Source: Candidatus Paceibacter sp. (GTDB lineage Bacteria > Patescibacteriota > Minisyncoccia > UBA6257 > 02-FULL-45-10c). Taken from it: a DNA stretch of 64,000 bases. The position numbers and the translations under genes are program-made. The stretch's first letter is position 1, and every line of letters starts with the position of its first letter. The DNA is taken from the NCBI GenBank assembly GCA_020724845.1, contig DYGE01000001.1:122664-186663 (forward strand), written 5' to 3'. This document shows, one piece after another, positions 3,469 to 60,460 of the stretch. The notes beneath the pieces were generated by a model that was given only the letters and a program-made list of their open reading frames with translations, was not told the DNA's origin and made no database searches.

Positions 3469-3797
3469 AAAACCAAGAAGATGTCCTTTCTTTAGACCGC
3501 CTCCATCTGCTAAACATAACCAGAAAGTATCCTCTGTGCGGCAACTGACGGAATCCTGATTTGCTCGGTTCGTCCGCCAGCTGGCGGACGAAAATCAGGG
3601 TGAGACGTAGGCGGAGTTATCACCCCGTGTTGGAAGGCAGGCCGCTATGCTATAGCATAGCGGTCGTCGGAAACCTGGAGGTGTCCGAGACGGGGGTCGG
3701 GGTGAGAATCTGGGACGGTAAGAGGATACTTTCTGGTTATGACACTTTGTCCCCACCGCGCAGCCCGAGTCTAAAGAAAGGACATCTTCTTGGTTTT
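3469..3797 (+). repeat. Structured palindromic element, copy 1 (nested inverted repeats; putative ncRNA or miniature mobile element)
   Basis: 29-bp perfect outer IR 3469-3497/3769-3797, 21-bp inner IR 3515-3535/3721-3741; core nearly identical to 60219-60460. Confidence 0.85.
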
Positions 3798-3809: not shown

Positions 3810-4856
3810 TTAAATCTTTATGTCTTTAGGCCGCATCGGATTATTTACCACCTGATAGTACTTATCAAATTGCTCTACCGCTATTCCAGCGCCCCTCACA
3901 ACCGCGGTCAATGGATCATCAATCACTTTCACAGGAACCATAAATTCCTTTTCAAATAATTTGTCTAAACCCTTCAATAAGCTTCCGCCGCCGCAGAGCT
4001 GAACTCCATTCTTCAGAATATCGCCTACCAATTCCGGCGGCGTGGCTTCAATAACCTGCCTGATAGATTCAACCATTTCTTTCAGTGAACGGCTCATAGC
4101 CGCGCGGACATGGCTATCTTTAAGCACAACCTCTTTAGGCAAGCCGGTCGCCATATCTCTTCCCCGAATAGCCAATTCCAATTTTTGATCGATCGGCATA
4201 GCCGTTCCAATTACCATTTTCAATTCTTCAGCAGTCGGTTCGCCAATCGCGAGCTTATACTCTTCCCGCACAAATCGAATTATATCGTTATTTAGGCGGT
4301 CGCCGGCAATCTTTAAGCTTTCAGATGTGACAATGCCGCCCATTGAAATAACGGCTATTTCAGTCGTGCCTCCGCCGATATCCACTATCGCGCTGGCAGT
4401 CGGCTCATCAATCGGAAGGCGGGCTCCGATAGCGGCCGCCAGCGGCTCTTCCACCACATAGGCCTTATTAGCCCCGGCCCCAATCACCGCGTCCTCTACT
4501 GACTTTCTTTCCACTTCGGTCAGGTTGCTTGGCACTCCGATAACTGCCCGATTATAAGTCAAAAAGCTATTAGAAGCTCCAATTTTCCTAAAGAAATGCT
4601 TCAGCATCTCTTGCGTCATTTCAAAATCAGAAATAACGCCATTTATAAGAGGGCGGATGATATTAATATGCGCCGGGGTCCTGCCAACCATTTTCTTAGC
4701 CTCATCCCCGACTGCCAGAATCTGTCCGGTTTTGCTGTTCACAGCCGCGACTGATGGTTCATTAATAACTATTCCGCGCCCCGCGACGTAAACCAAAGAA
4801 TTCGCCGTGCCTAAATCAACTCCTATACCTTTTGAAAAATAATTAAAAAATTTCAT
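3810..4856 (-). CDS. mreB: Rod shape-determining protein MreB (paralog 1)
   Basis: GVDLGTANS, DIGGGTTE, LCGGGSLL actin-fold motifs; likely start MKFF at 4856. Confidence 0.96.
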   Translation of the reverse strand: MKFFNYFSKGIGVDLGTANSLVYVAGRGIVINEPSVAAVNSKTGQILAVGDEAKKMVGRTPAHINIIRPLINGVISDFEMTQEMLKHFFRKIGASNSFLTYNRAVIGVPSNLTEVERKSVEDAVIGAGANKAYVVEEPLAAAIGARLPIDEPTASAIVDIGGGTTEIAVISMGGIVTSESLKIAGDRLNNDIIRFVREEYKLAIGEPTAEELKMVIGTAMPIDQKLELAIRGRDMATGLPKEVVLKDSHVRAAMSRSLKEMVESIRQVIEATPPELVGDILKNGVQLCGGGSLLKGLDKLFEKEFMVPVKVIDDPLTAVVRGAGIAVEQFDKYYQVVNNPMRPKDIKI

Positions 4857-4863
4857 ATAAAAT

Positions 4864-5385
4864 TTATTCGCCTTGTGAATAATCCTCGTATTCTTGCTGT
4901 AAACTCTTTTCAATTTCTTCTGGAGTTTCTTCTTCGGCAGTCATTATACCCCGGCTCTTCTTGGATTGGAACCTTTCGAAAACCCTTAAAGCTTCTTCCA
5001 AGGCCTCTTTGTAGTCTTCCGGAGATCGCTTTTTCTTTAAATCCTCAAGGGCATCTTCAAGGGCGGATTTGAATTCTTCCTGGGATTGATTTTCTAGAGC
5101 TTTAGCAAGGCGGTCTTGTGATTTCAATCTCTCGCCTAGCAAGTATTCTCTCTCAAATTCTCTAACAATCTCCTCGGCAGTTCGCTGCTTGGGTTCTAAT
5201 GACCCTCCCCACTCCTGTCTTTTATTAACTTCTTCAGCGTATTTCGATAAGTCCTCCGTAGAAACTATCCTTGATTCTTCTTTCCCTACCCGTCTTCCAT
5301 GCTTTCGCTTTAGCTCTCCAAGTTTCTCTTCCGCTAATTTTTCAAATTCTTCCAATATTGCCGGCCTTTTTTCAGGATTTTCCAT
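4864..5385 (-). CDS. Hypothetical charged helical protein
   Basis: 173-aa E/K-rich ORF filling the gap between proS and mreB. Confidence 0.7.
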   Translation of the reverse strand: MENPEKRPAILEEFEKLAEEKLGELKRKHGRRVGKEESRIVSTEDLSKYAEEVNKRQEWGGSLEPKQRTAEEIVREFEREYLLGERLKSQDRLAKALENQSQEEFKSALEDALEDLKKKRSPEDYKEALEEALRVFERFQSKKSRGIMTAEEETPEEIEKSLQQEYEDYSQGE

Positions 5386-8920: not shown

Positions 8921-9715
8921 TTATTGTATAGCTTCTAATTGCAATCGTTTATTAGTATTATAACTCTTTATCAAAAATAATCTATGCAAAACCCCTTTTA
9001 ATACGTCTTTATTTTTTACTGGCTCCGCCCGCAAGCTTATAACTAACTCCTCAAAAAATAGGTCCAGTAAGCCAGGGATCTTCTTTTCCTGATCTATCAA
9101 ATCCTTAATCAGCTTGGATCTTCCCGGCCCTGGCAATTTTAAAAACTTGTCCGCGTAACCGACTGCCTCTTCGGTCAACTCATCGGAAACTAGCCGCATC
9201 GCCCTCCCAGGGCGCCCATATGCTGAAGAGACCGCTTTCATGTTGCTTGTTACTTTTTCCATTTCGCTATCTGCTAACCTGCCAAAATGGATTTTTTGCA
9301 AACGGGACTGAAGAGGGCTTATCAAAGTTTCCGGCTGATGAACTACTAAAATCAAAGTTGCCCTTTCCGGCGGCTCTTCAGTAATCTTTAAGATCGCGTT
9401 CTGCGCCTGCGTAGTAAGGTCGCCGGCATTATCAATTACTACCAGCCGGCGGGAGGAAATAACCGGTTTCTGCCATAAGAAATTTTTCAATTCCCGCATG
9501 GCATCAATGCCAGTAGCATCTTCCAGCAATAAAGAATCTTGAAGCGGTTTTTTGGATAATTCAAACTCCCCTGTTTCCAGAAAATTAGCAAAATGCTCCG
9601 CAAAATAAAATTTCCCCACCTCCGGCTCGCCGAAAAAAATGTAGCCATGGGCTAAATGGTTATTCTTAACCAGCTTTTTGAAATCTTTTACCAGATGAGA
9701 ATGGCCAATTATCAT
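8921..9715 (-). CDS. holB: DNA polymerase III delta' subunit
   Basis: HGYIFFGEPEVGK, AQNAILKITEEPP, LQSR. Confidence 0.9.
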   Translation of the reverse strand: MIIGHSHLVKDFKKLVKNNHLAHGYIFFGEPEVGKFYFAEHFANFLETGEFELSKKPLQDSLLLEDATGIDAMRELKNFLWQKPVISSRRLVVIDNAGDLTTQAQNAILKITEEPPERATLILVVHQPETLISPLQSRLQKIHFGRLADSEMEKVTSNMKAVSSAYGRPGRAMRLVSDELTEEAVGYADKFLKLPGPGRSKLIKDLIDQEKKIPGLLDLFFEELVISLRAEPVKNKDVLKGVLHRLFLIKSYNTNKRLQLEAIQ

Positions 9716-10722
9716 TATCTCTTATTCAGAAGAGTTCTCTTGTAGACATCCAGATGGCTCAAGATAATGCCGGCGCCTTTGGCTACGCAAAATAGCGGCT
9801 CTTCGGCAATATAAGTTTCCACGCCAGTCATTCGCTTGAAGAATTCGTCAATGTAGCGCAATTGCGCTCCGCCCCCGGAAACGATAATCCCCTTTTCCAT
9901 GATATCAGCGACTAATTCCGGCGGAGTTTCGTTGAAAACGCTTTTTACTGAAGCAGCAATGTCAATCAAGTGCTGATTAAGCGCCTCGGAAATTTCATTA
10001 GAATTCACAACTATATCTTTCGGCAGGCCGGAAACCATATCCCGTCCGCGAATTTGGATCTCTAACTTTTCTTTGGATGGAAGCGCGGACCCGACTTCCA
10101 ATTTTATTAATTCAGCAGTTTGCTCTCCGATATGGAGCGAGTATTTTTTCTTAATATAATCCATAATCGCTTGGTCAAATTTATTGCCGGCAACCCTCAA
10201 ACTTGACCAGGCGACAATTCCGCCAAGGGAAATAACGGCTACTTCAGCGGTCCCGCCTCCAATATTAATAATCATATTGCCGGAATAAGAGTTGATCGGA
10301 ATGCCGGCGCCAAGAGCGGCTAAAAGCGGCTCTTTGACTATATAAGCTTCTTTCGCGCCGGCTTCTTTCGCGGCATTCATTATCGCTCTGCGCTCGGTTG
10401 GAGTAATCCCCGCGGGAGCGGAAATCACTACGTCCGGCCGGATTATATTAAACGAACCGGTAGCTTTGGCAATAAAGTACTTTAACATTGCCTTGGTTAT
10501 GTAATAGTCGGCAATGACGCCCTCTCGCAGAGGCCTGTAAGCGGCAATATCATCAGGCGTTCTGCCGATCATGTCCTTAGCTTCTCTGCCGACAGCCAGA
10601 ACGCCATTATCCGGCAAACTCAAAGCAACGATAGTCGGCTCGTTGATAATGAAACCTTTGCCCGGAACAAAAACGATGGTATTCGCGGTCCCGAGATCTA
10701 TTCCTATTTTTCTAGTAAACAT
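9715..10722 (-). CDS. mreB: MreB/Mbl (paralog 2)
   Basis: GIDLGTAN, NIGGGTAE, VSGGGAQL; follows murA as mbl does in Firmicutes. Confidence 0.94.
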   Translation of the reverse strand: MFTRKIGIDLGTANTIVFVPGKGFIINEPTIVALSLPDNGVLAVGREAKDMIGRTPDDIAAYRPLREGVIADYYITKAMLKYFIAKATGSFNIIRPDVVISAPAGITPTERRAIMNAAKEAGAKEAYIVKEPLLAALGAGIPINSYSGNMIINIGGGTAEVAVISLGGIVAWSSLRVAGNKFDQAIMDYIKKKYSLHIGEQTAELIKLEVGSALPSKEKLEIQIRGRDMVSGLPKDIVVNSNEISEALNQHLIDIAASVKSVFNETPPELVADIMEKGIIVSGGGAQLRYIDEFFKRMTGVETYIAEEPLFCVAKGAGIILSHLDVYKRTLLNKR

Positions 10723-17397: not shown

Positions 17398-17511
17398 CTA
17401 TCCCTGCCTTTGTTTATGTTTTTTAATTTTGCAAACAATATAAACCCTGCTTTTTCTTCGCACGACTTGGCAATCTTTGCATATTTTTTTTACTGATGCT
17501 CGTACTTTCAT
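17398..17511 (-). CDS. rpmJ: 50S ribosomal protein L36 (missed by ORF track)
   Basis: Manual translation [37 protein letters not shown]. Confidence 0.97.
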
Positions 17512-17626
17512 CCCGTTAGAGGCAGGTCGCGGTCTTTGTTATCCCGGCATGCCTTAATTCAATCAAAATAATTATATTAAATATTATTCTCTCTAATCCC
17601 ACCAGCGACCGCGGCCTCTAACGGGA
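17511..17626. mobile_element. Miniature inverted-repeat element (tcccgttagagg...cctctaacggga) abutting the rpmJ start codon
   Basis: 12-bp terminal IR plus cgcggtc/gaccgcg inner IR; AT dinucleotide on both flanks. Confidence 0.7.
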
Positions 17627-17643
17627 TTCGTTCCTGACGATAA

Positions 17644-17925: not shown

Positions 17926-17995
17926 CCCCACACATAACTTAGGCCACATGAGGCAAAACAACTCTTGGAGTTGCTAGTCTAAGTTATGTGTGGGG
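17926..17995. repeat. Palindromic miniature element, family CCCCACACATAAC, copy A
   Basis: ccccacacataacttag/ctaagttatgtgtgggg IR; abuts TTGACA of the infA promoter. Confidence 0.85.
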
Positions 17996-36019: not shown

Positions 36020-36082
36020 CCCCACACATAACCGGAGTTAGCACTAAGTACGCAAACTTTACCGCTCTGGTTATGTGTGGGG
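36020..36082. repeat. Palindromic miniature element, family CCCCACACATAAC, copy B
   Basis: ccccacacataacc/ggttatgtgtgggg; directly followed by TTGACA-17-TAAGAT of rpmB. Confidence 0.85.
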
Positions 36083-51008: not shown

Positions 51009-52328
51009 TTAGACAATCACGCCTCCGCCAAGCATCATTATAGAATTTGAACCCTCCTTCGCTGAAGCTTCCGCCTTCGCCAAGGCTTCGGCGGACAGGT
51101 CGGCGGGCAAGTAAAACACCGCCGATTGCCCAGAGGCAACAAATTTTTGAGGTTGGCTAAATACAAGCTTGAATAAAGAATTATGAATCACGAATGATGC
51201 GGGAACTAGCGGCTGCCTATAGCGCACTCGCGCTAAAACTGGAACGCTTAATTCCTTATTCTTAATTCCCCTGCCGCCTGCCCGGCCAGGGGGCAGGCTT
51301 AATTCCATATTTACAAGATTCACATCTCTTAACTCAATCTCCTTTTTGTAAAGCATCGGGTCGTCCTCCGAAGCTATAACGACAGTATTAGTTTTCACAT
51401 CCTTGCTCGCCACATAAAATGGTTGTTGGTTATTAGTTGTCGGTTGTAAGTTCACCCCTATGCGCCTTTGGCCGATCGTATAAAAATACGCTCCGCTATG
51501 CTTTCCGACTGTTTCGCCAGCGGAATTCAAGACTAAGCCCATTTTTTCCGGAATGTAATTACCCAAAAAATCCTTAAGCGTAACCTGCCCAAGAAAACAA
51601 ATCCCCTGCGAATCCTTTTTCTCGGCGTTCGGCAAGCCAAATTTCTTTGCCAGCTTCCTCACCTCCGGCTTGGTATATTCACCAATCGGAAACAAACAAT
51701 GCCGTAGCTGCTCCTGCGTCAGCGTCCATAAAAAATAGCTTTGATCTTTATTTTTGTCTTTAGCGATATATAAAGAAAAAATATTTTGGGTCAATCTGCC
51801 GAATTGTCGTGGAGAAACTACGGAAGCGCCAAAAGATTGGTTTCCGCTGAAGGCGGAATTTTGGCGCTGAGGCGTAGCGGGCACTCGCCGCTGGAGCGAG
51901 TGAACCGCGGTTCTCGCAGACGATTCGACTGAGCGACTTCTGCCCAAGCGGACATAGTGCCCGGTCGCCACATAGTCCGCCCCCATTTCCAATGCCTTCT
52001 GCAGAAACAATCCAAACTTAATCTCCTTATTGCACATCACATCCGGATTCGGCGTAAGACCTTTGCGATATCCGTCAACCATATATTCAACCACTTTATC
52101 TTTATATTCCTGCTCCATGTCAAAAACATAAAATGGAATGCCTAAAACCTCCGCCGCTCTTCGCGCGTCCTCCGCATCCTGTTCCGCGCAACCGTCAACG
52201 TTGTAGCACTTTAAATGCGCGCCAACCACGTCAAAACCGCGCTCTTTCAAAAGCGCCGCCGCAACAGACGAATCCACTCCCCCGCTCATTCCCACGAATA
52301 CCTTTTTGATCTTTTTACTTTTTGGCAT
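51009..52328 (-). CDS. mnmA: tRNA-specific 2-thiouridylase MnmA with multiple in-frame insertions
   Basis: MSGGVDS, NPDVMCN, ATGHY, KDQSYFL, SQGICF, YTIGQR, RVRYRQ, GQSAV all intact. Confidence 0.96.
   Translation of the reverse strand: MPKSKKIKKVFVGMSGGVDSSVAAALLKERGFDVVGAHLKCYNVDGCAEQDAEDARRAAEVLGIPFYVFDMEQEYKDKVVEYMVDGYRKGLTPNPDVMCNKEIKFGLFLQKALEMGADYVATGHYVRLGRSRSVESSARTAVHSLQRRVPATPQRQNSAFSGNQSFGASVVSPRQFGRLTQNIFSLYIAKDKNKDQSYFLWTLTQEQLRHCLFPIGEYTKPEVRKLAKKFGLPNAEKKDSQGICFLGQVTLKDFLGNYIPEKMGLVLNSAGETVGKHSGAYFYTIGQRRIGVNLQPTTNNQQPFYVASKDVKTNTVVIASEDDPMLYKKEIELRDVNLVNMELSLPPGRAGGRGIKNKELSVPVLARVRYRQPLVPASFVIHNSLFKLVFSQPQKFVASGQSAVFYLPADLSAEALAKAEASAKEGSNSIMMLGGGVIV
51786..51947 (+). repeat. 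Structured element, divergent copy 3, in-frame inside mnmA
   Basis: 162 bp (54 codons), ttggg...cccaa ends, same AACTACGGAA / TGAGGCGTAGCGG architecture as copies 1 and 2. Confidence 0.75.
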
Positions 52329-52395
52329 AGCTATAAAATACAATCATTTTTAATGAAAAGCAAATATATTTTTCGTTATCTATTATGGCCGTTCG

Positions 52396-60218: not shown

Positions 60219-60460
60219 AACCACCAGAACCTATTTCAGCTGCACGCCTCCACCTGATAAACATAACCAGAAAGTATCCTCTGTGCGGCAACTGACGGAA
60301 TCCTGATTTGCTTGGTTCGCTTGCGAAAATCAGGATGAGACGTAGGCGGCGCTGATCGCAGGAATCAGCGAACGCTGGTGCCGGTAGGAGGATACTTTCT
60401 GGTTATGACACTTTGTCCCCACCGCGCAACCCGACGCAGCTGAAATAGGTTCTGGTGGTT
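60219..60460 (+). repeat. Structured palindromic element, copy 2
   Basis: 25-bp perfect outer IR 60219-60243/60436-60460, largely different in sequence from copy 1; core shared with 3469-3797. Confidence 0.85.

Follow-up and report, generated by a model that had tools for sequence, protein, structure and literature searches.

What kind of element changes its stems from copy to copy while its loops stay the same, and how does it spread? The question is raised by a long palindromic structure between mreB and mrdA in a 64,000-nucleotide stretch of DNA from Candidatus Paceibacter sp., which as a whole we call the window. An earlier note on this DNA had described a second large copy and suggested that structure and loop sequence are under selection, as expected of a mobile structured RNA or of a single-stranded DNA (ssDNA) substrate of a trans-acting enzyme of the HUH (Y1/RAYT) or IS110 type. 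We have followed the structure through the genome that holds the window (G000), through 149 genomes of its order, which we take to be Paceibacterales, and through 149 genomes from across the phylum, both sets being scanned with a covariance model, R1.

Two nested families

The coordinates of the two large copies, their perfect outer arms of 29 bp (copy 1) and 25 bp (copy 2), and their shared loops, core and inner stems (21 and 20 bp) are all as first described; the blocks common to both are 96% identical over 75 nt and 53 nt. Each large copy had been taken for one element, but it is a nest of two independent and separable families, a core of about 150 nt and a shell of about 110 nt. In copy 1 (3469–3797), the copy-specific left arm of the shell (3469–3497) pairs perfectly with the right arm (3769–3797), from which the mreB stop is 12 nt away. 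Between the arms lie a 5′ loop strand (3498–3514), conserved in shells carrying other cargo, a core (3515–3741, +, the folded strand), and a 3′ loop strand (3742–3768). The core has a basal stem (3515–3535/3721–3741), a C-G-S-A/G-A-G loop, and an arm A with a GCTCGG bulge (3563–3568) and a palindromic cap (3574–3587), all on the plus strand. Copy 1 is atypical in that a third hairpin module (3613–3718, +) substitutes for arm B. The same arm-B-less variant occurs at two more G000 loci (C12:4372–4475 and C1:48743–48846), and a weak solo relative lies at C7:76368–76427 (E = 0.01).

Copy 2 has secF on one side and a sigma-70 region 4/HARE-HTH gene on the other. Its shell (60219–60460) has arms at 60219–60243/60436–60460 and loops at 60245–60261 and 60408–60434, and it encloses a complete core (60262–60407, +) with the arm A bulge at 60310–60315 and the arm B loop CGCAGGA at 60357–60363; this core scores 135 bits against model R1, of which copy 2 was itself a training sequence. 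A third copy, mentioned earlier without coordinates, was found by the covariance model at 118 bits: a core without a shell (51787–51940, +), in frame and antisense inside mnmA (51009–52343, −), where it lengthens the variable loop of MnmA after GHYVRL by about 50 residues. Folding z-scores are −9 to −11, with no shuffled sequence equally stable, and the window holds 53 local 14-mer inverted-repeat seeds, against 0–1 in 20 shuffles. The AACCA/TGGTT ends noted for the outer stems are present in copies 1 and 2 but absent from other shells. The window also contains two mreB-family genes (3810–4913 and 9715–10722) 5.9 kb apart, with 72–74% identity in aligned stretches, and a two-copy inverted repeat of 47 nt (19279–19325/26813–26859, 79%) that is unrelated to the core and shell.

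Across copies, the basal stem of the core (mostly 16–21 bp) leads through an internal loop and a short helix to a three-way junction, from which arise an arm A with the C-G-S-A/G-A-G loop, a one-sided GCTTGG bulge and a variable hairpin, and an arm B whose apex is a CGCWGGA loop. In the shell, an outer stem and a pair of conserved loop strands surround a cargo; this may be a short hairpin, a second shell in inverted position, or a core, which can point either way. G000 has 18 cores (15 model matches and 3 split across contig ends), 11 of them in shells and 7 solo, as well as one empty shell (C9:17810–17921); in run X1, the summed contig depth over one shell with its core was about 10 times that of the flanks. 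Copy-specific arms match 22/22 across contig ends of G000, so that three contig pairs can be joined through split elements (C2 start to C14 start, C9 end to C13 end, C11 end to C10 end).

Searching with a covariance model, as the earlier note had advised, did reveal further copies. Model R1 has matches in 71 of the 149 genomes of the order, with 1–20 copies each (at least, the best 20 candidates having been scored per genome). Several families are without a match (0/7), and in others every sampled member has the core (7/7, 5/5, and 6/6). Across the phylum, 7/149 genomes have matches, G000 being counted in both sets, and a model of the empty shell has matches in 4/149. Viral contigs gave 5 and 3 pattern matches, none a true copy. 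The carriers are ultra-small groundwater bacteria, in which the repeat is gene-less and lies between genes and in frame within genes. Cores are nested, too, in unrelated outer hairpin elements or in another core (L193 and L234 in G001; L245–L247 in G078; L206 in G077), which indicates that more shell-like families exist.

A match to a described RNA family had been named as one way in which the element might prove to be known. At the gathering threshold, Rfam 15 detects only tRNA in the window, and it gives only sub-threshold chance matches to copy 2, the empty shell, and a typical core, so that neither core nor shell matches any Rfam family. The 6S RNA model has 0 matches in G000, and likenesses to SAM-I, HDV, twister, 5S, and SRP RNA were considered and dropped, there being no model match. 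Nor did the literature outside subscription papers yield a description of this family; within that literature, core and shell are a real, undescribed pair of nested palindromic families. The cluster tables of one preprint, judged by its accessible part, may hold the family (bioRxiv 10.64898/2026.10.21.760802).

A conserved fold with loops of DNA type

Covariation extends beyond the stems of the first two copies. On a MAFFT alignment, RNAalifold found that 39 of 46 pairs had changed on both sides, and the figure was 44 of 45 when 99 distant copies were aligned to the model; 94% of cells were paired in this second alignment, which leans toward the structure, against about 40% in slid controls. 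Mutual information detected nested pairs only, with no pseudoknot signal. The three-way junction is thus conserved, with free covariation in its stems and four unpaired motifs that stay constant; C-G-S-A/G-A-G is present in 90 of 99 copies, and the exact GCTTGG bulge in 101 of 160. The resemblance of the ACG-GA/GAGA-CGU internal loop to a kink-turn, proposed earlier, did not hold up. A kink-turn has a 3-nt bulge 5′ of tandem G·A/A·G pairs, and the 90 copies with C-G-S-A on the left and G-A-G on the right have no 3-nt bulge and carry one extra base between the two G·A pairs.

The folded strand of the core can be identified by its wobble pairs. On the strand that reads GTGCGG, G·T pairs exceed A·C pairs (128 vs 64), which argues that this is the strand that folds; shell polarity leans to the opposite strand (8 G·T vs 18 A·C, p = 0.08). 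Of 161 segments, 145 could be scored and 16 were dropped; on the folded strand, 62 of the 145 cap arm A with a GNA triloop, and on the opposite strand 1 does. The other loop types tallied were GNRA (5) and cUNCGg (0). As a background, G000 has 369 perfect hairpins, of which 10 have GNA on either strand. These counts are dependent, since copies share ancestry, and the cGNAg caps span 15 stem contexts, with GAA, GCA, and GTA represented there and GGA added in the full tally. Mini-hairpins of the form GCGNAGC are described, in the accessible text of one report, as extraordinarily stable as DNA and far less so as RNA (PMC13037366). Because triloops of this DNA type are found on one strand, we think it likely that the core folds as ssDNA rather than as RNA, with the caveat that tandem G·A pairs and conserved bulges are typical of RNA too. 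Of the two natures suggested earlier for this mobile, structure-conserving, multi-copy element, the ssDNA substrate is therefore favored over the structured RNA.

Insertion sites and exchanged interiors

Insertions of the element lie in intergenic DNA, within other hairpins, and, with the reading frame kept, in protein loops that tolerate them; both orientations occur. Among 182 distinct copies no neighboring gene family occurs more than 5 times. Fourteen of the 182 were called inside long open reading frames, among them mnmA, AlaRS, LepA, IscS-like, tgt, and phosphomannomutase genes. All three cores in the window are antisense to the local genes, as the earlier note had remarked, but elsewhere the bias is weak: 47 antisense versus 32 sense in codirectional contexts (p = 0.11), and 11 versus 3 for the copies within genes (p = 0.057). 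Part of the latter is explained by stop codons, since stops close every reading frame of the folded strand in 80/182 copies and of the other strand in 54/182. In 104 of 164 cases the folded strand coincides with the C-rich strand, opposite the template of lagging-strand synthesis, on which ssDNA exposure is greatest; cases in which replication and transcription biases are discordant divide 13 to 13.

Relatives with empty sites, which had been suggested as a check, exist. In AlaRS, 18 of 21 orthologues are empty, and that of G003 is filled, with 44 codons added after E-V-A-P, no duplication, and a stem that extends 12 nt into native codons. The genes of G007 and G008, which represent two genera other than that of G003, retain an 8-codon remnant that fits a deletion between 6-nt near-repeats. 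One old insertion is the simplest reading of this series, although independent insertions in G003, G007, and G008 may account for it. Cores occur in mnmA of six genomes, in both orientations, and in two of the six the stem reaches the conserved R-L/R-I codons. The loop of mnmA after GHYVR appears to be a sink for insertions of several kinds, including low-complexity repeats and short palindromes as well as cores (L070, L146, L326–L354), and the window mnmA (51009–52343) has two more short insertions near its 3′ end.

The ends of the element are not defined by sequence. The stem ends of 180 copies have no conserved bases, and direct 4-mer repeats flank 25 of 180 inferred ends versus 18 when shuffled; a slight excess of 2-, 3-, and 8-nt direct repeats makes a short duplication possible. 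In G000, no empty palindromic target matches the arm profile convincingly, and among contigs of four read runs over C1:43500–49800 there is no joint that removes an element and no empty allele; the contigs of the RNA run leave the elements uncovered.

The outermost stem and the interior have different histories. In the 11 G000 shells, identity is 41% in the arms, 90% in the 5′ loop, and 99% in the inner stem; the core basal stem is identical inside shells and differs among solo cores whose interiors are 99–100% identical, an edge pattern that recurs in other genomes in 19 sister pairs, which are non-independent. Copy-specific outermost stems thus surround near-identical interiors, which points to an outermost stem that is tied to its locus and an interior that is homogenized. 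There is no sharp break between donor and target in the basal stem, along which divergence is spread. Interiors are flipped in two of eight readable shell-plus-core copies of G000. Loci L180 and L187 have flanks that are 99.6–99.9% identical, around a shell interior that is reversed and replaced, with two compensatory arm changes and a core in one allele only (the L180 allele comes from a single assembly, and L092, which has the same allele, may be the same assembly). At L112 and L170, the site and arms are the same and the cargo hairpin has been replaced by an inverted shell. Two other candidate allele pairs were set aside: L099 and L165 differ by an N gap, and L167/L174 looks chimeric.

Such flips and swaps at one locus fit template switching combined with conversion between copies. 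In the available portions of two papers, template switching is described as homogenizing arms and inverting spacers (PMC8604942; PMC8794818). Perfect outer arms need not reflect selection, since template switching makes such arms; bulges survive template-switch correction and, together with the internal helices, look to be under selection. The suggestion that structure and loop sequence are selected thus appears sound for the helices and bulges of the interior, and the perfect outer arms can be explained by template switching (PMC8604942, in the part accessible). Many terminator-like hairpins of G000 likewise have perfect arms of 17–28 bp, some of them loopless (C13:4164–4214, C3:25195–25243, C1:80945–81000), which suggests a general arm-extending process. 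In the same genome, a perfect 107-bp inverted repeat (C6:51–157 and 1487–1593; L141) surrounds one gene for a 309-aa membrane protein, possibly as an invertible segment or an assembly artefact.

Candidate enzymes and modes of spread

No enzyme of the proposed types is in the window, as the earlier note had said. The search for one elsewhere was likewise negative: there is no linked gene in 182 neighborhoods, clustering of neighboring genes at 61 and then 182 loci shows no enriched enzyme, and profiles for Y1, IS110, tyrosine recombinase, reverse transcriptase (RT), and GIY-YIG, together with a motif scan of 895 G000 open reading frames, revealed no specific partner, the incomplete annotation of the genome leaving room for an unknown protein. 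It might still be supposed that the element is a non-autonomous substrate of a known enzyme acting in trans, either Y1/RAYT, IS110, or an integron- or Xer-type tyrosine recombinase. Folded ssDNA, extrahelical bases, and insertion without target duplication resemble HUH and attC substrates, and loss of the enzyme from some carriers is conceivable. The Y1 profile, however, is absent from G000 and G007 and does not co-occur with the core (21/71 carriers vs 21/78 non-carriers, p = 0.86), and the Y1 genes found elsewhere have unrelated flanking repeats of their own. IS110 (PF02371) is in 0/5 carrier genomes, three of which are at least 96% complete, the attC motif RYYYAAC is in 0/11 shell left arms, and the one tyrosine recombinase gene is XerC/D-like, with no integron-type context. 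We therefore consider both of the enzymes named at the outset, and the trans-acting known enzyme in general, very unlikely.

A different class of enzyme deserves attention. Small GIY-YIG genes (about 85 aa) are abundant in core-carrying genomes, where they lie between inverted repeats of several families (L135, L138, L382–L413, L428–L439). These cassettes have conserved ends and short target duplications at start codons or −35 boxes, and gene-less copies of their ends are common beside them, two families numbering 12 and 5 such copies in G000 and the window containing three (17510–17627, 17926–17995, 36020–36082). Two small GIY-YIG proteins are encoded in G000, at C9:22997–23215 and C13:4633–4848. 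At L139 in G006, a GIY-YIG gene is followed directly by sequence that looks by eye like 16S rRNA, apparently an insertion into the rRNA. The Ssn GIY-YIG nucleases cut ssDNA hairpins strand specifically and ignore RNA, according to the accessible text of Chenal et al. 2025 (PMC11893778). Given that Ssn nucleases cut ssDNA hairpins on one strand and that gene-less derivatives abound here, small Ssn-like GIY-YIG nucleases are, by analogy only, the natural candidate, and our best guess, for an enzyme that could mobilize core and shell. Among the copies inspected, no core or shell encloses a nuclease gene; one core has a GIY-YIG gene as a neighbor, 67 nt away and outside it. The 5′ strand of the core was compared with a cassette end and the likeness rejected (best match 10.9, vs 10.6 shuffled). 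The degenerate SRM motif, which the available text of the same source describes as a short stem of defined sequence that flanks its gene (PMC11893778), is in 0/182 cores and 0/29 shell interiors. GIY-YIG matches occur in 125/149 genomes, and at least 9 core carriers are without a strong match, so that the profile gives no signal. Core and shell also differ from the cassettes in having no conserved ends, no consistent target duplication, and no shared end sequence.

The attC sites of integrons are folded single strands with variable stems, conserved extrahelical bases, and one active strand, all of which recall the core, but cassette arrays are missing here. To our knowledge, no dedicated enzyme has been described for the Rickettsia palindromic elements (RPEs). 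MITEs such as ERIC and Correia elements are, like core and shell, gene-less, 100–300 bp long, and multi-copy with inverted ends, but the ends here are not conserved in sequence (the 41% arm identity of 11 copies in one genome) and there is no consistent target duplication, with none at the AlaRS site and a short one possible elsewhere. RPEs, in the part of the source available, are palindromes of about 150 bp, dispersed and often in frame in unrelated genes (PMC10969869), which is also the habit of the core. As far as RPE descriptions go, the core differs from them in that its sequence is free while its junction and unpaired motifs are fixed, and in that it has no conserved peptide, nests in a second family, and carries DNA-type loops. 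REP, BIME, and REPIN-RAYT repeats are dispersed, mostly intergenic palindromes, some intragenic, that are thought to act as ssDNA (PMC3733652, accessible part); the core differs in its larger branched fold, in having no GTAG/CGTC foot, and in its stem ends and its independence of Y1 genes. The Ssn/NTS/SRM system, in its accessible description, shares strand-specific ssDNA hairpins in dispersed copies (PMC11893778). Our best reading is that this family works like the RPE, REP, and attC-type ssDNA elements and yet belongs to none of them by their defining features, the RPE-like in-frame habit excepted.

The alternative that the core is a structured RNA (a ribozyme, an RNA that binds protein, or a SINE-like RNA copied back into DNA by a DGR reverse transcriptase) is in our judgment unlikely. 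It would account for the three-way junction, tandem G·A pairs, fixed mismatches, and strong covariation, and for the antisense bias within genes, as if sense RNA were harmful; RT genes, of DGR type in G000, are in 4 of the 5 carriers first tested. The G000 RT, however, belongs to a separate, compact DGR (C6:10905–13090; L128, L145) with an antisense Avd-like gene, a target of 135 aa, and a template repeat (several DGRs occur in G012), and RT was not found in the carriers G001 (99% complete), G006, G009, and G010. Moreover, the loops are of DNA type with hardly any GNRA or UNCG, G·T pairs make up only 3% in the core, closed reading frames explain part of the bias, A-rich loops are conserved, contrary to DGR adenine mutagenesis, and Rfam has no match. 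Retro-elements of the DGR, retron, or group II kind are thus poorly matched, RT being neither linked to the core nor co-occurring with it.

Spread with no dedicated enzyme, driven only by natural transformation, recombination at short homologies, and template switching as the host replicates, we regard as decidedly unlikely. The unlinked neighborhoods, the precise, duplication-free AlaRS and mnmA insertions with stems running into native codons, the long perfect arms of ordinary hairpins, and the persistence of the arm-B-less variant at three loci are all in its favor; against it, unpaired motifs fixed across the order imply a specific reader, because template switching alone should erase bulges. 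We give the least credence to the idea that the core is no selfish element and is kept by the host as an ssDNA signal, for instance to mark priming sites or to modulate transforming DNA as it enters. Some families retain it throughout, mini-hairpins mark priming sites (PMC13037366), and Ssn/NTS modulates transformation in Neisseria (PMC11893778), both in the accessible text of those sources, but the 0–20 copies per genome (at least) lie at unrelated sites, whole families are without the core, copies within genes decay, and the strand bias is weak and in the wrong direction for priming.

We propose instead, and give the proposal an even chance of being right, that core and shell form a gene-less, two-family repeat that folds as ssDNA, is moved by an unlinked ssDNA hairpin nuclease, and is reshaped by template switching and conversion. 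The folded strand would be exposed during replication or DNA uptake and recognized by its shape, the GCTTGG bulge, and the CGCWGGA loop; the candidate nuclease would then cut that strand near the stem base, and the strand would be joined into a new site. Template switching between the arms could keep them perfect, extend them into flanking host DNA, and flip the interior, while short-homology conversion between copies may homogenize everything inside the outermost stem. Copies within genes would be translated and might decay into short new peptide loops. A bolder reading, possible but more than we would count on, is that this is the first natural branched ssDNA family under order-wide selection, defined by shape, read by a nuclease or itself catalytic, with a terminal stem that is partly host DNA and interiors that are swapped.

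Almost no complex folds of natural ssDNA are known; the known cases (attC, REP, NTS) are simple hairpins, and ssDNA more complex than a hairpin would be rare, according to the accessible part of one paper (Weinberg 2017; PMC5737381). The core, with its three-way junction and four unpaired motifs that do not vary, occurs in about half of the sampled genomes of a CPR order; it is a rare candidate for a complex natural DNA structure under selection and a directly testable substrate, as an ssDNA oligonucleotide against the reverse strand and against RNA. The family also carries a warning, in that covariation in long perfect stems can stem from template switching and is no proof of RNA. Finally, it bears on the movement of RPE-like palindromes that have no transposase linked to them and on the way in which they add peptide to essential proteins, the AlaRS series presenting insertion and decay at one site.
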